Source: Acetobacteraceae bacterium
GTDB taxonomy: Bacteria > Pseudomonadota > Alphaproteobacteria > Acetobacterales > Acetobacteraceae
Direction of reading: 5' to 3'
Length of the DNA: 57,505 bases
Assembly (NCBI GenBank): GCA_036494925.1
Contig: DASXNR010000417.1
Location: 1 to 57,505, forward strand
Shown: positions 2,516-57,505 of the stretch, piece after piece
Numbering within the stretch: position 1 is the first letter of the stretch
How the letters are laid out: each line of letters opens with the position of its first letter
Notes under the pieces: generated by a model
What the model was told of the DNA's origin: nothing
Databases searched by the model: none
Seen by the model: the letters and a program-made list of their open reading frames with translations, nothing else
Program-made: the position numbers and the translations under genes

Positions 2516-3682
2516 TCAGTAGCCGTACGACTCGGTGCCGACCTGCACCCAGTGGCCGTTCTTGACCTGGGCGAGGAAGGCCTCATTCGAGCCCTGATGC
2601 TTCGTCGCACTGAAGCTCATCGTCGGCGAACCAAAGATGTCCTTGTAGTCCTTGATGCTCTCCATCGCGGCGATGAAACTGTCAGCGCTGAGATCACGGC
2701 CAGCCTTCTGCAAGCCCAGCACCACCAGTTGCGCCGCCGAATAGCCGACCTGCGCGGCGAAGTTGGGCGGGTGTCCGAACAGCTTCTCATACCTCGTCGC
2801 GAATTCCCGCACCGCAGGACGCGGATCGCTCGGTTCGGCGAAAATCACCGACGTGGTGGTGTAGACCCCCTCGGTCACGCCACCGGGCACTTCCGCCACC
2901 GCCACGTCGTAGATCGCGACATTGCCCAGTACATCGACGTTCCATCCCGACTTGCGTATCGCCGAGACGATCTGCACGGTGTCCCGCACGATGGAGCCCA
3001 GCAGCACGAGGTCACAGTTGGCATCGTGCAGCTTGGCGACCGAGGCACTGAAGTCGGTGTCGGTCGGCTTGTGCAGCGTCTCCGCCACCAGCTGCATGTT
3101 CAGGACCTTCAATTCGTCCCGCGCACCGTCCATCACGTCACGGCCGAAGTCGGTGTCCTGCGACATCGCGCAGATCCGCTTCTTGCCGTATTTCTCGGCG
3201 AACAGCTTCACCCCGGCGCGCTCCATATCGTAGTACGACGCGGCGAAGCCGAACTTCATGTGGTTGAGCGGATAGTACATCGACCGTGCCGCGGTAAGCG
3301 GGAACATATTCGGCACGCCCTTGGCGATCTGTTCAGGCATGGTGGCGTTGTTCATCGGGGTGCCGCCGTTCGCCACCATCATGAACGCGTTGTCGCGATT
3401 GATCAGCTTGTTCGCTGCCTGCACCGCGCGCGGTACCTGGTACTGCATGTCCTCGACGATGTACTTGATCTTGCGGCCGTTGATGCCGCCTTCCGCGTTG
3501 GCTTCGTCGAACACCATGCGCCAGGCATTGGTGTTGTTGACACCCCACATCGCGGTCACGCCAGACAGGTCGGTGTAGGTGCCGATGACGATTTCGTTGT
3601 CGGTGACACGGGCGTTCTCTCCCGCCGTGGCCGGGACCGTGAGTGCGACGGCTGCGATCGCCGCGATGAACACGTTGCGCAT
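2516..3682 (-). CDS. ABC transporter substrate-binding protein, Leu/Ile/Val-binding (HAAT, LivJ/K-like) family, copy 1
   Basis: Signal peptide MRNVFIAAIAAVALTVPATA. Family-typical VIGTYTDLSGVTAMWG, GGINGRKIKYIVED, VMxGARDELK. About 70% identical by eye to the adjacent paralogue. Confidence 0.9.
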   Translation of the reverse strand: MRNVFIAAIAAVALTVPATAGENARVTDNEIVIGTYTDLSGVTAMWGVNNTNAWRMVFDEANAEGGINGRKIKYIVEDMQYQVPRAVQAANKLINRDNAFMMVANGGTPMNNATMPEQIAKGVPNMFPLTAARSMYYPLNHMKFGFAASYYDMERAGVKLFAEKYGKKRICAMSQDTDFGRDVMDGARDELKVLNMQLVAETLHKPTDTDFSASVAKLHDANCDLVLLGSIVRDTVQIVSAIRKSGWNVDVLGNVAIYDVAVAEVPGGVTEGVYTTTSVIFAEPSDPRPAVREFATRYEKLFGHPPNFAAQVGYSAAQLVVLGLQKAGRDLSADSFIAAMESIKDYKDIFGSPTMSFSATKHQGSNEAFLAQVKNGHWVQVGTESYGY

Positions 3683-3830: not shown

Positions 3831-4997
3831 TCAGTAGCCGACCGGCGTCATGCTGACCGGCGCCCAGTGGCCGCCCTTCACCACGCACAGGAACGATTCG
3901 TTGGAACCCTGGTGGGTCGCACTGAAGCTCATCGCCGGCGAGCCGAAGATGTCGTGCCAGTCCTTGATGCTCTCCATGCCGGCGACGAAGCTGTCGGTCG
4001 TCAGGTCCTTGCCGGCATTCTTCAGCGCCTGCACGACAAGCTGCGCCGCCGTGTAGCCGATCTGCGCGGCGAAGTTCGGTTCCTTGCCGAACTCCTTCTT
4101 ATATTCCTCGGCGAACTTGGTCACCGCCGGACTGGAATCGCTGGCCGCGACGAACAGCACTGGCGTCATCGAGTAGAAGCCTTCCGTCACGCCGCCCGGC
4201 ACTTCGGCAACCGCCTCGTCATAGCTCGCGGCCTGGCCGAGCATTTCGACATTCCAGCCGATCTTGCGCACAGCAGAGACGATCTGAATGGTATCGCGGG
4301 TGATCGTGCCGAGCAGGATCAGGTCGCAGTTGGCTTCCTTCAACCGGGCCACCGACGCGCTGAAGTCGGTGTCGGTCGGCTTGTGCAGCGTCTGCGCCAC
4401 CAGCTTCAGGTTCATCGCCGCAAGCTGATCGTTGGCGCCCGCCATCACGTCGCGGCCGAAATCGGAGTCCTGCGACATCGCGCAGACCGCCTTGCTGTGG
4501 TGCTGCTCGACGAACGTCTTTACGCCGGAGCGCATCTGGTCATAGTACGAAGCCGCCAGACCGAACTTGAGGTGATGCAGCGGCTCGTACATCGAGCGCG
4601 CCGAGGTCAGCGGGAAGATGTTCGGCACACCCTTCGCGAGCTGGTCGGGCATCGTCGCGTTGTTCATCGGCGTGCCGCCGTTGGCGACCATCATGAACAC
4701 GTTGTCGCGGTTGATCAGCTTGTTCGCGGCCTGGACGGAACGAGGGACCTGATACTGATTGTCCTCTACGATGTACTTGATCTTGCGGCCGTTGATGCCG
4801 CCGGCGGCGTTGGTCGCGTCGAACACCATGCGCAGGGCATTGGAGTTGTTGACGCCCCACATCGCGGTCACGCCGGAGAGGTCGGTATAGGTGCCGATGA
4901 CGATCTCGTTGTCCGTCACGCCACGTTGGCTGTCCGCCGCCATGGCGGGACTGATCAGTGCGCTGGCGAGTGCCGCCGCGAATAGCCTGCTACGCAT
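3831..4997 (-). CDS. ABC transporter substrate-binding protein, Leu/Ile/Val-binding (HAAT) family, copy 2
   Basis: Signal peptide MRSRLFAAALASALISPAMA. Same conserved blocks as copy 1. Confidence 0.9.
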   Translation of the reverse strand: MRSRLFAAALASALISPAMAADSQRGVTDNEIVIGTYTDLSGVTAMWGVNNSNALRMVFDATNAAGGINGRKIKYIVEDNQYQVPRSVQAANKLINRDNVFMMVANGGTPMNNATMPDQLAKGVPNIFPLTSARSMYEPLHHLKFGLAASYYDQMRSGVKTFVEQHHSKAVCAMSQDSDFGRDVMAGANDQLAAMNLKLVAQTLHKPTDTDFSASVARLKEANCDLILLGTITRDTIQIVSAVRKIGWNVEMLGQAASYDEAVAEVPGGVTEGFYSMTPVLFVAASDSSPAVTKFAEEYKKEFGKEPNFAAQIGYTAAQLVVQALKNAGKDLTTDSFVAGMESIKDWHDIFGSPAMSFSATHQGSNESFLCVVKGGHWAPVSMTPVGY

Positions 4998-9640: not shown

Positions 9641-9915
9641 GTTCGGCGGCCCTCCCTTAGGCGGGGCCGACTTCGTGGCGCCCCGGCAGTTGATTTCAGG
9701 CGCGACGATAGGACGAGCTTTTGCGGAGCGTCAATGCAACCGGCCCTTGGGTACAGGCAATTTGGATCCGGTGGGGCGCTTTGGTGGTCCGCGAGAAAGG
9801 ATTCAACCTGGCGCAGCCGTCGGCCGCAACCAAGCCAGAGCACGTCAAGGCAACAGGGTGAACGACAGACGCGCCCGGCTCGTTTGCTTTAGCGCAAGAA
9901 AGTAAGCGAGATATT

Positions 9916-10028
9916 GAAACCACAGATGCACACGGATGTACACAGGTCGGCGCTGATTCGGGCGCCCACCGACTGCTTTTGCGGCGGCGTGAATATATCC
10001 GTGTTCATCTGTGTGCATCTGTGGTTTC
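9916..10028. repeat. 113-bp palindromic (REP/MITE-like) element
   Basis: The left arm GAAACCACAGATGCACACGGATGTACACAGG (9916-9946) matches the reverse complement of the right arm CCGTGTTCATCTGTGTGCATCTGTGGTTTC (9999-10028), with about 3 mismatches in 30. It lies in a non-coding gap. The track ORF 9914..10120 is just its translation. Confidence 0.7.
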
Positions 10029-10387
10029 GACTTCTTGCCTCAATTCGACTGGACCGATCCGTCAGATTTCATCCACCAGTACCCCTGCACGGTGGTTTTG
10101 ACGGGCTGCGCCAGCTTTGACCGTTCCTGGGCGACTGTGCCAGCAGACGATCTGGACCGCCGCCTGCGAGCAATAGCGGCGCCGCAGGACAAGAAAAGGT
10201 TTTCACGCAGATAAGGGCGGATTCACGCGAAACACGCAGACGGTCCTGCGCGGCTCGCAGGCTTTGCTCCATGCGTAGGGGAACGGTCAACTCGCCGCCG
10301 AGCCAGGAATCAGTCAAAACCTCTGTGCAAGAGTACTAGCGGTTGGATAGTCTACAAGAAAGGATTCAACACGGAGGAAGTGCGAGG

Positions 10388-20573: not shown

Positions 20574-23500
20574 ATGCTGTCGAAATTCTTCATCGAGCGC
20601 CCGGTCCTCGCCAATGTGCTGGCGATCGTCCTGGTGCTGCTCGGTGCCGTCTCGCTGTTCCGCCTGCCGGTGTCGGAATATCCCAATGTGGTGCCGCCCA
20701 CCGTTTCGGTCACAGCGAGCTATCCCGGCGCCAGCGCGCAGACCGTGATCGACACGGTCGCCTTGCCGATCGAGCAGCAGGTGAACGGCGTCGATCGAAT
20801 GCTCTACATGGAATCGACCAGCGCCTCCGACGGTACCTACAACCTGACGGTGACGTTCGCGATCGGGACCGACCCGGATATCGACCAGGTCCTGGTGCAG
20901 AACCGGGTCCAGCTTGCGCTCGCTTCATTGCCCGAACCCGTGCAGTCCCAGGGCGTGAGCGTCCAGAAGAAGAACACGGCGATCCTGCAGATCGTCACGC
21001 TCGATTCGCCGGACGGCAAGTACGACGGCCTGTTCATGAGAAACTACGCCACCATCAACCTGACCAACGTGCTGGCACGCCTGCCGGGCGTCGGCAGTGT
21101 CAAGGTGTTCGGTGCGGGCAACTATTCCATGCGGGTCTGGATGGACCCGCAGAAGCTCTATTCGTTCGGCCTGCAGCCGAAGGACGTGATCGACGCGATC
21201 CGACAGCAGAGCCAGAACGTGGCGGCCGGACAGGTCGGCATGCCGCCGGCGCCGGACGGCACGCAATTCCAGTACACCGTCGATATCCAGTCACGGCTGA
21301 ACGATCCCAGCCAGTTCGGCGACATCGTGGTCAAGGACCAGACCGCCCAGGGCGGGCGCCTGATCTATGTCCGCGATGTCGCGCGCATCGAGCTTGGTTC
21401 GCAGACCTACGCGCAGGACTTCAAGCTGAACGGCAGGCCCGCCGCCGGCATCGCCATCTATCAGACCCCCGAGTCCAACTCGCTCCAGGTCGGCAAGGAG
21501 ATCGCGGCAACGATGGCGGCGATGGCACGCCGGTTCCCGGAGGGATTGCACTATTCGATCCCGTACGACACCACGACCTTCGTCACCGACTCGATCAACG
21601 AAGTCTACAAGACGCTGTATCAGGCCGGCATCCTGGTGCTGATCGTCATCCTGGTGTTCCTGCAGAACTTCCGCGCGACGCTGGTTCCCGCCACCACGGT
21701 GCCGGTCACCATCATCGGTGCGTTCGCCGCGATGGCGGCGCTGGGCTTCACCGTCAATCTGTCCACCCTGTTCGGCATCGTGCTGGCGATCGGCATCGTG
21801 GTGGACGATGCCATCGTCATCGTGGAAGGCGTTTCCAAGTATATCGAGCAGGGCATGTCCGGCCACGACGCGGCCATCAAGGCGATGAGCGAACTGTTCG
21901 GACCGGTGGTCGGCATCACGCTGGTGTTGATGAGCGTGTTCCTGCCGGCCGCCTTCGTTCCCGGCCTGACCGGCAACATGTTCGCCCAGTTCGCGCTGGT
22001 GATCGCGGCGACGGCGCTGATCAGCGCGGTGAACGCCGCGACGCTCAAGCCGACGCAATGCGCCATGTGGCTGCGCACTCCGGTGCCCCCGGAACAGCGC
22101 AACTTCTTCTACCGCGGGTTCAACCGGATCTACGACCCGATGGAGCGCGGCTACGCGACGTTCATCGGCCGCATGGTGCGCCGCAGCGGCATCATGGTGG
22201 TGATCGCCCTGTTGGTCGCCGGCGCGGGCATCTGGGGACTCGCCCGGCTGCCGACGGCGTTCATCCCGATCGACGACCAGGGCTATCTGATCATGGCGCT
22301 GCAGCTGCCGGAGGGCGCGTCGCTCGGCCGCGCGACCGCGGCGCTGGAGCAGGCCGCCAAGGCGGCACGCGAGATACCCGGCGTGCAGCAGACGATCGCG
22401 CTGTCAGGGGTCTCCGTGCTCGACAACAGCGCCGATCTCGCCAATGCGGGAACCGGCTGGGTCATGCTGAAGCCGTTCGCCGAACGCCTGAAGGCAGGCG
22501 ACCAGGACCTGCTGACGATCTACCAGCGCCTGCAGAAGGCGCTCGCCTCGCTGCCTGACGGACAGGCGTTCGTGTTGCCGCCGCCGCCGATCCAGGGGAT
22601 CGGCAATGCCGGCGGCTTCCAGATGCAGCTCGAGCTGCTCGGCGGCAGCTTCGACTACCAGAAGCTGAACAATCTGACGCAGGAGATCGTCAAGCAGGCC
22701 AGCAGCGATCCCGCGCTGGCGAACGTGCTTTCCACGTTCAAGCCCGATGCGCCGCATGTCGCACTGACCGTGGATCGCGCCAGGGCGGAAACCCTGCGGG
22801 TGTCCGTGGGCGACATATTCTCGACGCTTACCGACTATGTCGGATCGACCTACGTCAATCAGTTCAACAAGTTCGGGCTGTCGCTGCAGGTCTATGTCCA
22901 GGCCGACTCGCAGTACCGCCTGCATCCGGACGACCTGCTCAACCTGTATGTGCGCAGCCAGGATGGGCAGATGGTGCCGATCGGCGCGGTTGCCCATCTC
23001 AGCCCGGTGGTCGCCCCGCCGCTGATCACGCTGTACAATCTCTACCCGTCCGCCACGATCGTCGGCGGCCCCGCGCGCGGCTTCAGCTCGGGCCAGGCAA
23101 TCGCCGCCATGGAGGCGATCGCCAGACGGGTCCTGCCGAGTGACGTCAGCTTCGAATGGACGGCGATGTCGTACCAGGAGAAGATCACCGGCAACCAGCT
23201 CTACTACGTGTTCGGCCTGTCGGTGCTGCTGGTCTATCTCTGCCTGGCCGGCCAGTACGAGAGCTGGATCCTGCCTTTGGCCGTGCTGTCGGCGGTGCCG
23301 CTGGCGCTGCTCGGACCGGTCATCGCCCTCACCAGCCTTGGCGCCGCCAACAACCTGTACACCCAGATCGGCCTGATGCTGCTGATCGCGCTGTCCGCCA
23401 AGAACGGCATCCTGATCGTCGAGGTCGCGCGCGAGCGGCGGCTTGTCGACGGTCTGTCCATCCTGGAATCGGCGGTGGAGGCATCGCGGACCAGGTTCCG

Positions 23501-23765
23501 GCCGATCCTGATGACGTCGTTCGCCTTCATCCTGGGCGTGCTGCCACTGGTGCTCGCGACCGGCGCGGGCGCCAATGCCAGGAAATCACTCGGCATCAGC
23601 GTGTTCAGCGGTATGATCGCTTCGACCTGCCTCGCGGTGTTGTTCGTGCCGTCGTTCTTCGCCGTGTTACAGCGCTTCGAGGAGTGGAGGAAGCGTCGCA
23701 AGACACCAGCGGGGACACCGGAACATCCGGCGGGCGAGGCGCGAGCGTTGCCGTCGGGAGAATGA
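20574..23765 (+). CDS. RND efflux transporter permease (AcrB/HAE1-like)
   Basis: 1063 aa. MLSKFFIERPVLANVLAIVLVLLG N-terminus. Typical 12-TM RND blocks (VDDAIVIVE, AKNGILIVE). Confidence 0.95.
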   Translation: MLSKFFIERPVLANVLAIVLVLLGAVSLFRLPVSEYPNVVPPTVSVTASYPGASAQTVIDTVALPIEQQVNGVDRMLYMESTSASDGTYNLTVTFAIGTDPDIDQVLVQNRVQLALASLPEPVQSQGVSVQKKNTAILQIVTLDSPDGKYDGLFMRNYATINLTNVLARLPGVGSVKVFGAGNYSMRVWMDPQKLYSFGLQPKDVIDAIRQQSQNVAAGQVGMPPAPDGTQFQYTVDIQSRLNDPSQFGDIVVKDQTAQGGRLIYVRDVARIELGSQTYAQDFKLNGRPAAGIAIYQTPESNSLQVGKEIAATMAAMARRFPEGLHYSIPYDTTTFVTDSINEVYKTLYQAGILVLIVILVFLQNFRATLVPATTVPVTIIGAFAAMAALGFTVNLSTLFGIVLAIGIVVDDAIVIVEGVSKYIEQGMSGHDAAIKAMSELFGPVVGITLVLMSVFLPAAFVPGLTGNMFAQFALVIAATALISAVNAATLKPTQCAMWLRTPVPPEQRNFFYRGFNRIYDPMERGYATFIGRMVRRSGIMVVIALLVAGAGIWGLARLPTAFIPIDDQGYLIMALQLPEGASLGRATAALEQAAKAAREIPGVQQTIALSGVSVLDNSADLANAGTGWVMLKPFAERLKAGDQDLLTIYQRLQKALASLPDGQAFVLPPPPIQGIGNAGGFQMQLELLGGSFDYQKLNNLTQEIVKQASSDPALANVLSTFKPDAPHVALTVDRARAETLRVSVGDIFSTLTDYVGSTYVNQFNKFGLSLQVYVQADSQYRLHPDDLLNLYVRSQDGQMVPIGAVAHLSPVVAPPLITLYNLYPSATIVGGPARGFSSGQAIAAMEAIARRVLPSDVSFEWTAMSYQEKITGNQLYYVFGLSVLLVYLCLAGQYESWILPLAVLSAVPLALLGPVIALTSLGAANNLYTQIGLMLLIALSAKNGILIVEVARERRLVDGLSILESAVEASRTRFRPILMTSFAFILGVLPLVLATGAGANARKSLGISVFSGMIASTCLAVLFVPSFFAVLQRFEEWRKRRKTPAGTPEHPAGEARALPSGE

Positions 23766-37739: not shown

Positions 37740-38597
37740 ATGCTGAAATTCGGCGCGGCCATGTTCTTCACCGACTATTCGATGAGGCCGGGCGAGCTCG
37801 GCAAGGCGCTGGAGGAGCGCGGCTTCGAATCGGTGTGGGCGCCCGAGCACTCGCACATCCCGCTGTCGCGCAAGACACCGCCCGCGGGCGGCGGCGAACT
37901 GGCGAAGAAGTACTACGACACGATGGATCCGTTTGTGACGTTGACCATGGCGGCGGCGGCGACCAAGACATTGAAGGTCGCGACCGGTGTCTGCCTGGTC
38001 GCGCAACGCGATCCGATCCAGACCGCGAAGCTGGTCGCATCGATCGATCAGGTTTCGGGCGGCCGGTTCCTGTTCGGCATCGGCAACGGCTGGAACCAGG
38101 ACGAGATGGAGAACCACGGCACGGTCTACAAATCGCGCCACAAGCTGGCACGCGAACGGGTCGAGGCGATGAAGGAGATCTGGACCAAGTCGAAACCGGA
38201 ATATCACGGCGAGTTCGTCAACTTCGATCCGATGATGGCCTGGCCGAAGCCCGTGCAGAAGCCGCATCCGCCGGTCATCGTCGGCGGCGCATTCCCGTAT
38301 TCCGCGCGCCGCGCCATCCGCTATGGCGACGGGTGGATTCCGCATGCGACGCGGAATACCTACGCCGAGATCGCCGACATGCTGCCCGAGTTTCGCAAGA
38401 TGGCCGCCGAGGCGAAGCGCGATCCGAAGTCGATCGAGATCACCGTGTGGGGTCCCAAGCAGGACGCCGACCTGATGAAGCGCTACCAGGACCTCGGCGT
38501 GGCGCGCGTGGTGTTCAATCTGGAGTCGGAGAAGGCGGACGCCATCCTGCCTTTGATCGATGGCTGGGCGGCACTGACGCGCAAGGTCAACGGCTGA
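37740..38597 (+). CDS. luciferase-like monooxygenase (LLM) class, F420-dependent-type oxidoreductase
   Basis: MLKFGAAMFFTDYS..., SVWAPEHSHIP, GGRFLFGIGNGWNQDEM. About 285 aa. Confidence 0.85.
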   Translation: MLKFGAAMFFTDYSMRPGELGKALEERGFESVWAPEHSHIPLSRKTPPAGGGELAKKYYDTMDPFVTLTMAAAATKTLKVATGVCLVAQRDPIQTAKLVASIDQVSGGRFLFGIGNGWNQDEMENHGTVYKSRHKLARERVEAMKEIWTKSKPEYHGEFVNFDPMMAWPKPVQKPHPPVIVGGAFPYSARRAIRYGDGWIPHATRNTYAEIADMLPEFRKMAAEAKRDPKSIEITVWGPKQDADLMKRYQDLGVARVVFNLESEKADAILPLIDGWAALTRKVNG

Positions 38598-54548: not shown

Positions 54549-55487
54549 ATGTCAGGCAGCAACAGCGCCCAATCATCTGGACGGATCGAACAATCGGCTC
54601 CGGAGCTGGAGAGGATCATCGCCACGTCCGAGCCTATCCACTACCTGGCCGATGGCTTCGGAGGTGCGCATGGCCCGGCGGAAGGACCGATCTGGTGGCA
54701 GGAGGGCGGCTACCTGTTGTTCAGCGACATCCACAACAACAAACGTATGAAATACCTCCCCGGCACCGGCGTGACGCTGTTTCAGGAACCGACCAACCGT
54801 GCCAACGGACTGACCCGGGACCAGCAGGGCAGGCTGATCGCCTGCGAGCATGACTCGCGCCGGGTCACGCGTCAGGAACCCGACGGCAGTATCACGGTGA
54901 TCGCCAACAGCTTCCAGGGACGGCAGCTCAACCGGCCCAACGACGTGGTGGTGAAGTCCGACGGCTGCATCTACTTTACCGATCCGTGGACCAGTCCCGC
55001 GCCGGCCGAGCAGTGGGACCTGACATTCTCGGGCGTCTACCGTGTCACCCCCGATCTGGGAACGATGACGCTGCTGATCGGCGACTTCGTGATACCGAAC
55101 GGCCTCGCGTTTTCGCCGGACGAAAGCGTGCTCTACATCAACGACTCGCGCCGCGGGCATATTCGGGCATTTGATCTGATGCCCAACGGAACGCTGGCAA
55201 AGCAGACCGACCGCGTGTTCGCCGATCTGCGCGGCGACGAACCGGGCGTTCCCGACGGCATGAAGGTGGATGTCGAAGGCAACGTCTATTGCGGCGGCGC
55301 CGGCGGGTTGTGGATCATGGATCCGAAGGGAAAGAAGCTGGGCCGGATCGTGCATGGGGCCTCGGCCACCACCAACCTGGGCTTCGGCGGCGATGACTGG
55401 AAGACGCTGTACTTCACCAGCCGCAATCACCTCGGCGCGGTCAAGGTGAAGATTGCGGGTATCCCGGTGCCATCGCGGAAAAAGTAG
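54549..55487 (+). CDS. SMP-30/gluconolactonase/LRE family protein
   Basis: AEGPIWW, LLFSDI, NGLTRDQQGRLIACEH, NRPNDVVVKSDGCIYFTDP, PNGLAFSPD, PDGMKVD blocks. Confidence 0.88.
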   Translation: MSGSNSAQSSGRIEQSAPELERIIATSEPIHYLADGFGGAHGPAEGPIWWQEGGYLLFSDIHNNKRMKYLPGTGVTLFQEPTNRANGLTRDQQGRLIACEHDSRRVTRQEPDGSITVIANSFQGRQLNRPNDVVVKSDGCIYFTDPWTSPAPAEQWDLTFSGVYRVTPDLGTMTLLIGDFVIPNGLAFSPDESVLYINDSRRGHIRAFDLMPNGTLAKQTDRVFADLRGDEPGVPDGMKVDVEGNVYCGGAGGLWIMDPKGKKLGRIVHGASATTNLGFGGDDWKTLYFTSRNHLGAVKVKIAGIPVPSRKK

Positions 55488-55534
55488 CATTGGGTCCGCG
55501 GCGAACCAAGTTGAGGCCGAAATCCGACCGCCAT

Positions 55535-55568
55535 CGTCGTGGCCGGGCTTGGCCCGGCCATCCATGTC
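55535..55568. repeat. inverted repeat L with internal perfect hairpin, flanking the GIY-YIG gene
   Basis: CGTCGT-GGCCGGGC-TTG-GCCCGGCC-ATCCATGTC. 8-bp GC stem at 55541-55548 / 55552-55559. It ends 1 nt before the GIY-YIG stop codon. Confidence 0.7.
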
Positions 55569-55569
55569 T

Positions 55570-55857
55570 TTAGCTCAGCAACGACGGGTACAAGTCGTCC
55601 CATTCCGGATTCTCAGCTGCCAGCAGACGAGTTTTCCAGGCGCGCGGCCAACGTTTGAGGCTGGTCTCTCGCTGAATCGCGGCGGGTATATCCTCGTGGC
55701 GTTCAAAATACACGAGCTTGGTCAGGTCATAGCGATGAACGAAGCTGCTACCAGTGCCTTCTCGATGCTCCCACACACGACGGATGAGGTCGTTCGTGAC
55801 ACCGGCGTACAGAGTGCCATTGCGTCGGTTCGTCACGATGTAGATCCAGCCTCCCAT
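55570..55857 (-). CDS. GIY-YIG nuclease family protein (UPF0213-like, 95 aa)
   Basis: WIYIVTNRRNGTLYAGVTNDLIRRVWEH (GIY...YxG) and downstream R...E (AIQRETSLKRW). Confidence 0.88.
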   Translation of the reverse strand: MGGWIYIVTNRRNGTLYAGVTNDLIRRVWEHREGTGSSFVHRYDLTKLVYFERHEDIPAAIQRETSLKRWPRAWKTRLLAAENPEWDDLYPSLLS

Positions 55858-55887
55858 TCAGGGATGATCTGCCTGCATGGTAAAGAA

Positions 55888-55920
55888 GACGTGGATGGCC
55901 GGGCCAGGCCCGGCCATGAT
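55888..55920. repeat. inverted repeat R with internal perfect hairpin, flanking the GIY-YIG gene
   Basis: GACGTGGAT-GGCCGGGC-CAG-GCCCGGCC-ATGAT. Stem at 55897-55904 / 55908-55915. It lies 30 nt upstream of the GIY-YIG start codon. Confidence 0.7.
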
Positions 55921-55972
55921 TCCTGTGGGGCACAGTATCGCGGTCCTCCGGGAGCTCGTCTTCCTCAGGCCC

Positions 55973-57421
55973 CTACCGCGACAGTGATCGCCCCAGCACT
56001 GTCCAGCCCAGCCGACCGGGCACCACGCCGCTCCCCTGCTCCATCGTCCCCTTGACCTCGATGGAGCGGAACCGCTGCGCCCGGAAACCCGGGGAGAAGT
56101 GATCGGCCCCAAGCCCCGCCTTCAGCTTCAGCGCCGTCAGGAACTGCCGCCGGTCGGCCAACTCCTCCCACACGCTGGGCAGGAACAGTGAACGCCGTCC
56201 AAGGTCCTCGATGATCAGCCCGTCAACCCCCGGGCGAAGCTGCGCCAGCAGGTCGGCCTCGGCGGTGAAGCGCATCGGCTCCGGCGGGGTCAGCACCGAG
56301 ACCGAAAGTGACAGCCGCGGCAGCTCCAGCCAGTCCAATCGCGGGAACCGCCAATCGCGGAACGCCGCGTTGAACGCGTGCTGCACCACGTCGACGAGCA
56401 GCGGCCGGGTCGCCACCGCCGAGCCGATGCAGCCGCGCAGCTCGCCGCTCCGTCGCAGCGTGATGAATGCGGCGCCCGGCGCGGCCAACAGCGGAGCCAC
56501 GGCGCCGTCCGCGATCAGGTGCGGTGGCTGGCCGGTGTCCAGCCCGAACAGGATCGAGCGTCGCGCCAGGTCGATCAGCGCCGGCCCGACCGCCTCGACG
56601 GCGGTCCGTTCGGTATCCGGCACAATCCCCTCGTACAGCGCCCAGGCGCCGTAGCCCACCACACGGTCGCGCGGGCCGGCGGTGTCGCCGGAGTTGCGCA
56701 GGTCCAGGCGCTCGATCGCCAGACCTCGCTGGCGTGCCGCCAGCAGCAAACCGCGCGTCGGCACTGCCCCGCAGGCCTGCGTCGGTGTGATGGCGGGATC
56801 GAACCGCTCGATCGCTTCGGCCGTGGTCTGGTCGAGCCGCCGGCACGCGGCGTAGTCGAGGTAGTGCGACAGGTCGGTGGAGACCACGATCAGCGTCTCC
56901 GGGCCACCCCACAGCGCGTCGAACACCGCCGCGACCGCCTCGGCTGGCGCATCGCCGGCGACGATCGGCACCAGGCGGAACTCGCCCAGCACGTGCTGCA
57001 GGAACGGCACGTGCACCTCCAGCGCATGCTCGCGCTGATAGGCGGCATCGAGCTCGCCCACCATGGGCAGCGCGCGGAGCCGTGCGATCGCCTCCGTGTC
57101 GAGCTGCACGGTGCCGCCCGGCATGGCCCAGGCCTGGGCGGTATCCACCGCAAGGCCGCGGAACGCGACATAGTGGGACGGCCCGATCAGTACCACGCGG
57201 CGGATCGTGCCGCGCCCGGCAGCCAGGCGCGCATAGGCCCGGGCGGCAACGGGGCCGGAATAGATGTAGCCGGCGTGCGGGCCGATGATCGCCTTCGGGA
57301 CCGCGGGCGACGGCGCGTCGTTGGCCGCCTCGGACAGGAACTGCACGAGCTGCCGTTCCAGCACATCCGGCTCGGCCGGGTAGAAGGTTCCCGCGACAGC
57401 GGGATGGCGGATCGCGGTCAT
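55973..57421 (-). CDS. fused Memo-like (AmmeMemoRadiSam system protein B) and AMMECR1 (protein A) domains
   Basis: N-terminal half: HPAVAGTFYP, GPHAGYIYSG, ALEVHVPFLQ, VSTDLSHY (Memo/MEMO1 family). C-terminal half: GAAFITLRRSGELRGCIGS, LSVSVLT, GLIIEDLGRRSLFLPSVWE (AMMECR1). Start uncertain: ATG 57421 or 57442, or GTG 57451. ATG 57421 overlaps the TGA of another frame that stays open to the window edge. Confidence 0.85.
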   Translation of the reverse strand: MTAIRHPAVAGTFYPAEPDVLERQLVQFLSEAANDAPSPAVPKAIIGPHAGYIYSGPVAARAYARLAAGRGTIRRVVLIGPSHYVAFRGLAVDTAQAWAMPGGTVQLDTEAIARLRALPMVGELDAAYQREHALEVHVPFLQHVLGEFRLVPIVAGDAPAEAVAAVFDALWGGPETLIVVSTDLSHYLDYAACRRLDQTTAEAIERFDPAITPTQACGAVPTRGLLLAARQRGLAIERLDLRNSGDTAGPRDRVVGYGAWALYEGIVPDTERTAVEAVGPALIDLARRSILFGLDTGQPPHLIADGAVAPLLAAPGAAFITLRRSGELRGCIGSAVATRPLLVDVVQHAFNAAFRDWRFPRLDWLELPRLSLSVSVLTPPEPMRFTAEADLLAQLRPGVDGLIIEDLGRRSLFLPSVWEELADRRQFLTALKLKAGLGADHFSPGFRAQRFRSIEVKGTMEQGSGVVPGRLGWTVLGRSLSR

Positions 57422-57505
57422 CGTCGCCAGATATTGGCGCATGGATACCACGATTGAAGGTTCGCTGTTCCCCGCGCGACACTGGCACGCGCTGGCCGAC
57501 GGGCG

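Follow-up and report, generated by a model that had tools for sequence, protein, structure and literature searches.

A nuclease gene between two inverted hairpins

The stretch of DNA analysed here, called the window in the following, comprises 57,505 nucleotides of a contig of an Acetobacteraceae bacterium (DASXNR010000417.1, assembly GCA_036494925.1) and contains, close to its right end, a small GIY-YIG nuclease gene enclosed by two inverted copies of a hairpin repeat. Translation of the open reading frames (ORFs) revealed an intact frame of 95 aa on the minus strand (Table 1), and the protein matched the Pfam family PF01541 (GIY-YIG) over residues 3-75 (E=1.2e-13), with no second domain. The two inverted arms (55537-55570 and 55886-55919) are 34 nt long each, 91% complementary and 315 nt apart; the left arm shares one base with the stop codon and the right arm lies 28 nt before the start codon. 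Common to both is the core GGCCGGGC-NNN-GCCCGGCC. The window contains exactly two occurrences of this core and likewise exactly two of the 32-nt consensus, where 0 were expected (100 shuffles). Folded as single-stranded DNA (ssDNA), both arms form stems of 9-10 bp with 3-nt loops (-13 to -15 kcal/mol, z-scores -3.0 to -3.9). The GC content of the nuclease gene (0.545-0.57) is lower than that on the side of the neighbouring SMP-30/gluconolactonase gene (~0.62-0.66) and on the side of the neighbouring Memo/AMMECR1 gene (~0.69-0.76). An earlier note, made from the letters of this DNA, had already described the stand-alone gene, its tight bracketing, 1 nt from the stop codon and 30 nt from the start codon as delimited there, by inverted repeats with a GC stem in each, and its lower GC content, and all of these observations were borne out.

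The ratio of non-synonymous to synonymous substitution rates (dN/dS) of the nuclease gene was 0.125 against its counterpart at the closest related locus, L129 (gene DNA 93% identical), and 0.052 against a relative at 81% identity. The catalytic positions Y6, Y17, and E64 are conserved in at least 90% of 120 homologues. Judged from these substitutions, the gene is under purifying selection. An NCBIfam search of the 95-aa protein gave no family above the cut-off, the match to TIGR01453 scoring 17.5 bits against a cut-off of 56. When the sequences of solved structures were searched, the UPF0213 structures 1ywl and 1zg2 matched weakly (E=3e-4 and 3.5e-3, respectively).

Homology with SsnA of Neisseria

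Members of the Ssn family (Chenal et al., Nat Commun 2025, PMC11893778) are single-domain GIY-YIG proteins of ~94 aa (CDD cd10448). Their genes have hairpin repeats at their flanks, which bear the name NTS in Neisseria (CGTCATTCCCGCGMAVGCGGGAATCYRG) and the general name SRM. According to that study, at least one SRM lies near 71% of the homologues, and 42% are flanked on both sides. Purified SsnA of Neisseria meningitidis binds the repeat only as ssDNA and only on one strand, and cuts a few nt upstream; double-stranded DNA and RNA were not cut, and cutting was abolished by the substitutions Y6A, Y17A, and E64A (PMC11893778). For cutting, the bases just before the palindrome are important, the three preceding bases most of all; for binding, it is the C directly behind the palindrome. 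The authors likened the arrangement NTS-ssnA-NTS to an insertion sequence, compared it with the REP-associated tyrosine transposases (RAYT) and their repetitive extragenic palindromes (REPs), and also raised the hypothesis of mobilisation (PMC11893778).

A tblastn search with the window protein against a 2.17-Mb record of Neisseria gonorrhoeae (NZ_CP119142.1) gave E=3e-20, and BLASTP against the gonococcal protein 44% identity over 90 residues without gaps (E=2e-30); the Ssn study accepted homologues at E<1e-10 (tblastn/blastp, PMC11893778). The alignment pairs residues 5-94 with residues 5-94, and Y6, Y17, and E64 coincide, so that the window protein has the homology, the catalytic residues and, with 95 aa in one domain, the build of an Ssn protein. 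The gonococcal gene has 94 codons, and the published NTS motif occurs 8 times around it within 3.3 kb; because of this length, the shared Y6/Y17/E64 numbering and the flanking NTS copies we took it as the ssnA orthologue.

NZ_CP119142.1 (locus L211) and a further 2.17-Mb record of N. gonorrhoeae, NZ_CP119140.1, are filed as plasmids, and their size suggests chromosomes. At L211 the ssnA-like frame has no in-frame ATG at the expected start, and a nearby ATG in another frame runs into a stop after 10 codons; this copy may be frameshifted or use an unusual start.

The hairpin as a dispersed inverted doublet

One genome per species was scanned with the query GGATGGCCGGGCNNNGCCCGGCCA, and at least 120 stretches from many alphaproteobacterial families matched. 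In related Alphaproteobacteria the hairpin is thus a dispersed repeat, as the earlier note had suspected. The counts given below for 858 kb of relatives' DNA were made among the matches listed, the hosts of which include Xanthobacteraceae, Bradyrhizobium, Alsobacter, Methylobacteriaceae, Ancylobacter, Rhodopila, Acidisphaera, and Ferrovibrio. In an alignment of 128 copies, conservation extends past the searched bases: the conserved unit reads AAGaCGTGGAT-GGCCGGGCCAAGCCCGGCC-ATGACG, or CGTCAT-stem-loop-stem-ATCCACGtCTT on the opposite strand, and the consensus unit of the family is CGTCATGGCCGGGCTTGGCCCGGCCATCCACG.

With a structural unit defined as a perfect stem of at least 8 bp and a tail ATCCACG with at most one mismatch, 156 units were found in 858 kb of relatives' DNA, and 143 of them have the head CGTC. 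Tail-to-tail doublets, 51 in number and with spacers of mostly 15-31 nt, account for 102 of the 156 units, and only 4 pairs are head-to-head; the dispersed element is therefore mostly an inverted doublet. The nuclease gene of the window occupies the position of the short spacer of such a doublet, and doublets without a gene have the same inner extension as the cassette (CGTCTT / AAGACG).

Several doublets of one metagenome-assembled genome (MAG) of Alsobacter sp. (NZ_CAMFHB01; loci L003, L028, L040, L073, L097, L107, and L115) have similar spacers (tgccggggccgtcctg, tgccggggccgtccct, tgcctgggccatcctc, tgccgggaccatgctg), a pattern expected if whole doublets, not single hairpins, are copied. One exact hairpin match lies outside the Alphaproteobacteria, in a MAG labelled Chloroflexi (L014, VBIA01000147.1); either wrong binning or a genuine copy in a second phylum could explain it.

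Association of the gene with the hairpin

The 858 kb contain 7 genes related to the window protein. An exact hairpin match lies within 150 nt of 5 of these and within 200 nt of 6; in the flanks of the seventh, L120, the unit occurs as loop variants. Every cassette that was read has the same layout, with a sense unit 25-50 nt before the start codon and an antisense unit 0-15 nt after the stop codon. A further 80 homologues (58-85% aa identity) came from metagenomes, and 68 of them have at least 130 nt of sequence on both sides. Correctly oriented units were present within 130 nt on both sides of 26 of these genes, on one side of another 26, and on neither side of 16. In total, 52/68 loci carry the unit, against a background of 13 units in 160 kb away from the gene, which corresponds to 0.006 expected per flank. 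The association of GIY-YIG homologues with flanking copies of the repeat, which the earlier note had proposed to test, is thus strong.

The stems differ between loci by paired changes (GGCCGGGC, GGCCGGCC, GCCCGGCC, CCTCGGCC, CCCCGGGC, GGCAGGCC, and others), while CGTC-AT...AT-CCACG is invariant, and both flanks of a given gene usually carry an identical stem. Many homologue gene calls reach 115-133 aa only through in-frame translation of the upstream hairpin ('MAGLGPAIHVFF...'), as is the case for 17 of the 22 N-terminally extended calls. A spurious minus-strand ORF of the window (54573-55565) likewise begins with the translated repeat ('MDGRAKPGHDD'), in line with the remark in the earlier note that the translated repeat resembles a motif of spurious small-ORF calls in related high-GC alphaproteobacteria.

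Some related cassettes are decaying: in L065 (4880-5146) the frame is shifted near the 3' end of the gene and the downstream hairpin is degraded, in L089 (3785-4063) a stop interrupts the frame, and at L120 (7603-7873) the gene is broken. Intact and dead copies of the cassette coexist across genomes.

A probable Ssn-type cassette

From sequence comparison, the window locus is very probably an Ssn-type cassette, in which a 95-aa GIY-YIG nuclease gene lies between inverted copies of its cognate hairpin repeat. It is one more member of the Ssn/SRM kind published in 2025, and thus a rediscovery and no new category. Shared with the published cassettes are the single domain of 94-95 aa, the ungapped identity of 44% and the positions of Y6/Y17/E64, as well as inverted flanking hairpins with a CGTC head, a stem started by AT and a C after the palindrome; in both cases the repeat is also dispersed in the genomes of related organisms. 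The left unit reads CGTC-GTGGCCGGGC..GCCCGGCCAT-C and the right unit AATC-ATGGCCGGGC..GCCCGGCCAT-C, so that the head and the 3' C are found on both sides, the right head being degenerate. The window differs from the Ssn literature in its longer stem starting with GG (ATGGCCGGGC), in the slightly degenerate heads, in an activity that is predicted by analogy, and from Neisseria in its host, a high-GC alphaproteobacterium. The hypothesis of the earlier note that the GIY-YIG protein recognises the hairpin is supported by the experiments on its homologue SsnA (PMC11893778).

Several observations weigh against this assignment. The published SRM search motif, HGTCWYN(0-2)YYVSBRHN(0-5)WNVSBRGN(0-2)RNCYNB (a heuristic built from 29 genomes, PMC11893778), matches neither window unit nor the family consensus, and it is found near only 11/80 of the close homologues. 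Both window heads deviate, the right one with AATC for CGTC and the left one with CGTC-GT for CGTC-AT, while L129 has the canonical CGTCAT on both flanks. As the Neisseria enzyme depends most on the three bases before the palindrome, the two window units may be poor substrates, with weakened cutting. Finally, the 57.5-kb window contains no copies of the repeat besides the two flanking ones. The failure of the motif is due to one position of the longer stem starting with GG, and since the motif is a search heuristic, we treat the mismatch as marking a probable variant of the repeat, not a failed membership. On plasmids of Rhizobium sp. CIAT894 (61% aa identity) and Azospirillum lipoferum 4B (48% aa identity), the flanking units of the homologues pass the SRM motif in the same geometry.

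The repeat as a CGTC-tagged REP

The accessible text of an earlier study of CGTC-tagged REPs (Di Nocera, De Gregorio, Rocco, BMC Genomics 2013, PMC3733652) describes them as having an unpaired CGTC head (or TGTC/CCTC), an 8-9 bp stem starting with AT, a loop of 4-5 nt, and a CCA tail. Most of them occur in Alphaproteobacteria, and the usual arrangement is an inverted dimer, in many cases a heterodimer. They are divided into families CGTC-1 to CGTC-4 and include the Neisseria repeat dRS3, listed as CGTC-1; the study reported no dedicated enzyme for them. The window unit fits this grammar (CGTC-(A/G)T-GGCCGGG-CTTGG-CCCGGCC-AT-CCA), with a CGTC head, a 9-bp stem beginning with AT and a 5-nt loop (or 10 bp and 3 nt), and a CCA tail. 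Of the individual units, the left one has the CGTC head, GT for AT, and the CCA tail, and the right one an AATC head, AT, and the CCA tail. Among the matches listed, the stem and CCA tail of the relatives' units are likewise as described for CGTC-tagged REPs. By its sequence, the window repeat is a CGTC-tagged REP, equivalent to the NTS/SRM of the Ssn literature, and the verbal description of the families in the accessible text makes CGTC-3 a candidate assignment. What sets the window apart from the described CGTC-tagged REPs is the associated GIY-YIG nuclease gene. The equation of Ssn repeats with CGTC-tagged REPs appears in the accessible text of neither PMC11893778, which does not cite the 2013 work, nor PMC3733652, and a search for SsnA among the papers available gave no other.

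Contexts of the cassette

The DNA of the window cassette is 92% identical to that of L129 and ~80% identical to L065 and L130, and all four lie among different genes; the contexts of the closest nuclease homologues all differ from one another. Similarity to the window cassette stops at the outer arm ends, at 55535 or 55545 and at 55919, except that L129 continues to 55508. The stretch shared with L129 (Table 1) may belong to the unit as an additional piece or may be left over from an earlier context. On plasmid AZO_p3 of A. lipoferum 4B (L213, NC_016623.1 255374-255992), a doublet-ssn-doublet block fills the 618-nt spacer between sufB and sufC. The same spacer measures 88-92 nt, without unit or gene, in A. 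ramasamyi and A. oryzae (sufB/sufC 95-97% identical), 56 nt in A. thermophilum and ~32 nt in A. brasilense; overall, Azospirillum relatives including sp. B510 have 32-130 nt between the two genes and no such element. At an orthologous site within an operon, the element is thus present in A. lipoferum and absent from its relatives. From the unrelated contexts and this case in a single Azospirillum species it follows that cassettes are gained as units.

The Azospirillum insertion does not begin and end cleanly at CGTC heads. Inspection by eye of the window and six related cassettes found no direct repeat outside the arms, that is, no target-site duplication. An empty site for the window locus was not found via homologues of the neighbouring SMP-30 gene (86-88% identity), and none could be defined, because synteny is not conserved in the seven loci, all of which have different neighbours. 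Replicons with ssn carry 1-2 copies of it, and records of 2-5 Mb are no exception.

Predicted activity and alternative explanations

By homology with the Neisseria enzyme, the protein would bind the folded hairpin in ssDNA only, and only the sense strand (CGTC-AT-stem-loop-stem-AT-C...), and the bound protein would cut a few nt 5' of the CGTC head. Since the heads point outward, the predicted cuts would lie just outside the cassette, on the plus strand left of 55535 and on the minus strand right of 55921; by the example of the Neisseria enzyme, the plus-strand cut would fall within 55508..55534. Cleavage of ssDNA by the window protein is thus predicted by analogy, while the homology, the anatomy of the cassette, the conserved association, and the purifying selection are direct results. 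Its role in the host may lie in controlling ssDNA that enters the cell or is being replicated, or in spreading the repeats.

The earlier note had compared the locus to the REPtrons, in which a RAYT gene is associated with GTAG-tagged REPs. The architecture agrees: a low-copy gene is bracketed by inverted hairpin copies, the repeat is dispersed as inverted doublets, and the enzyme would, by analogy, act on a hairpin in ssDNA. Strict membership was rejected, as the gene matches GIY-YIG only, with no HUH/Y1 transposase, and the tag is CGTC, with no GTAG. A GIY-YIG hydrolase is unrelated to the HUH tyrosine transposase, which is able to rejoin strands, and mobilisation of the hairpin by the nuclease is here a hypothesis only. 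An insertion sequence with terminal inverted repeats does not describe the locus either: the arms are present, but there is no known transposase fold and no visible direct repeat.

The cassette might itself be mobile, as a GIY-YIG analogue of a REPtron: the nuclease would cut at the outward heads, the unit would be moved or copied, and the gene-less doublets would be non-autonomous derivatives resembling REPINs (REP doublets forming hairpins) or miniature inverted-repeat transposable elements (MITEs). This explanation, which we regard as possible but clearly on the unlikely side, overlaps with the Ssn-type assignment and differs from it only in the biological role. It would account for cassettes of 80-92% identity that lie among unrelated genes (L129, L065, L130) and whose similarity ends at the outer arms, for the presence/absence difference between sufB and sufC in A. 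lipoferum 4B, for the inner extension CGTCTT / AAGACG of the gene-less doublets and the similar spacers in several doublets of the one Alsobacter genome, and for the GC content of the nuclease gene below that of its neighbours. Yet the inspected ends (by eye) carry no target-site duplication, no empty site was found for the window locus, where synteny is not conserved, the Azospirillum breakpoints are unclean at the heads, and even records of 2-5 Mb contain only 1-2 copies per replicon. The strong purifying selection is no less compatible with a gene kept by its host than with a selfish gene. Moreover, GIY-YIG hydrolysis without known rejoining would require host repair or recombination; GIY-YIG enzymes hydrolyse DNA, and strand rejoining is not known for the superfamily.

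On a related view, Ssn cassettes would be the missing autonomous partner of the CGTC-tagged REPs, and the tail-to-tail doublets non-autonomous derivatives, spread by nicking of ssDNA at the outward heads followed by host repair or recombination. We put this forward tentatively and with the odds against it; the cassette boundaries, the unrelated contexts and the sufB-sufC case are compatible with it and no proof of it.

Two further explanations were weighed. A free-standing gene resembling a homing endonuclease could have invaded a pre-existing doublet by recombination via the arms: the gene lies exactly at the position of the doublet spacer, the similarity boundaries coincide with the arms, and GIY-YIG domains are common in homing endonucleases (accessible text of PMC1564403). 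This we consider improbable, because a 95-aa single domain lacks the DNA-binding domain of the characterised GIY-YIG homing enzymes, replicons carry only 1-2 copies of the gene although doublets that could serve as targets are many, the characterised homologues do not cut double-stranded DNA (PMC11893778), and the pairing of gene and hairpin extends from Neisseria to Alphaproteobacteria, the two flanks carrying matching variants. Membership of the window gene among the homing endonucleases was likewise rejected, given its 95 aa, its single domain, its TIGR01453 match far below the cut-off and its chromosomal intergenic position between the SMP-30 and Memo/AMMECR1 genes: I-TevI and I-BmoI share the GIY-YIG catalytic core, but have a separate DNA-binding domain and cut double-stranded DNA. 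In such enzymes an N-terminal GIY-YIG domain is followed by the C-terminal DNA-binding domain, and their genes mostly lie in introns or phage genomes. The proteins of the UPF0213/YhbQ type also have this core and a similar size; the window protein is closer to Ssn, with E=2e-30 for the Neisseria gene against E=3e-4 and 3.5e-3 for the UPF0213 structures.

The hairpins could also be ordinary REPs or terminators of the neighbouring genes, with the nuclease gene merely lying between them. The left unit indeed scores as terminator-like on the plus strand and follows the SMP-30 stop codon (55487) at a distance of 50 nt, and REPs lie mostly downstream of genes in published work. But the only two copies in 57.5 kb lie 0 and 28 nt from the gene, the arrangement recurs at 52/68 homologue loci against a background of 0.006 per flank, and it recurs in Neisseria, Rhizobium, and Azospirillum. 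The association statistics effectively refute chance juxtaposition, and we give this explanation almost no weight.

Features of the locus and of the window

The coordinates of the cassette are summarised in Table 1. The stem of the left unit begins with G in place of the A of the family consensus.

Table 1. Parts of the nuclease cassette in the window (positions of the 57,505-nt stretch)
Feature	Position	Strand	Evidence
Outer stretch, 27 nt, common to window and L129, absent from L065 and L130	55508..55534	.	cassette DNA comparison
Left hairpin unit, sense orientation	55535..55570	+	sequence, folding, family consensus
Left unit, head CGTC	55535-55538	+	sequence
Left unit, stem-loop (G)TGGCCGGGC-TTG-GCCCGGCCA(T)	55539-55561	+	sequence, folding
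Left unit, tail CCATG	55562-55566	+	sequence
Left unit, inner extension TCTT, overlaps stop codon by 1 base	55567-55570	+	sequence
ssn-type gene, single-domain GIY-YIG nuclease, 95 aa, Y6/Y17/E64 present	55570..55857	-	ORF, Pfam, homologue alignment
Leader between upstream hairpin unit and start codon, 28 nt	55858..55885	-	TGA stop directly before ATG
Right hairpin unit, sense orientation	55886..55921	-	sequence, folding
Right unit, inner extension TCTT	55889-55886	-	sequence
Right unit, tail CCACG	55894-55890	-	sequence
Right unit, stem-loop ATGGCCGGGC-CTG-GCCCGGCCAT	55917-55895	-	sequence, folding
Right unit, head AATC, degenerate (canonical CGTC)	55921-55918	-	sequence

The SMP-30/gluconolactonase gene (54549-55487, plus strand) converges on the nuclease gene, and a Memo+AMMECR1 fusion gene (55973-57451) lies upstream of it on the same strand. 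The 28-nt leader is conserved in the related cassettes L129 and L065. No sigma-70-like promoter was found in 55400-56100, and the nuclease gene is possibly transcribed by read-through from the Memo/AMMECR1 gene.

Elsewhere in the window, a lone hairpin at 38332-38357 (minus strand; ATTCCGCGTCGCATGCGGAAT-CCACC) has a CCAC tail and a stem like that of the Neisseria NTS, with no CGTC head; it may be a degenerate unit of another CGTC-REP type or a chance match. A 38-nt inverted repeat (9906-9943 / 10001-10038, 84% complementary, 57 nt apart), which contains GAAACCACAGATGCACAC / GTGTGCATCTGTGGTTTC, bears no relation to the CGTC hairpin. Its AT content exceeds that of the DNA around it, and the ~500 nt in which it lies have no ORF of at least 120 aa; it may be an operator or another small repeat. 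The segments 2604-3422 and 3916-4734, 1312 nt apart and 74-80% identical over at least 600 nt, look like a tandem pair of paralogous genes. ARAGORN called a tRNA-Leu(CAA) of 88 nt at 22014-22101 (plus strand), inside a 1063-aa ORF (20574-23765); the call is probably a false positive. An Rfam search of the window gave no family at threshold, tRNA included.

Implications for Ssn nucleases and CGTC-tagged REPs

The hairpin variant of this clade is mostly missed by the published SRM motif, which found it at 11/80 loci against 52/68 by structure, and the published figures for the Ssn association are therefore probably underestimates. A site-specific single-strand nuclease is wanted as a tool by the authors of the Ssn study (PMC11893778), and each hairpin variant is a candidate new specificity of such an enzyme. 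The present analysis adds the explicit link between the Ssn repeats and the CGTC-tagged REPs, whose enzyme was open in 2013, the anatomy of a doublet with a gene in its spacer, and evidence for the gain of cassettes as discrete units. Such discrete loci are suited to testing whether a nuclease unable to rejoin DNA can drive the spread of a repeat. If Ssn cassettes were indeed the autonomous partner of the CGTC-tagged REPs, they would represent a second, mechanistically independent origin of the REPIN/RAYT lifestyle.

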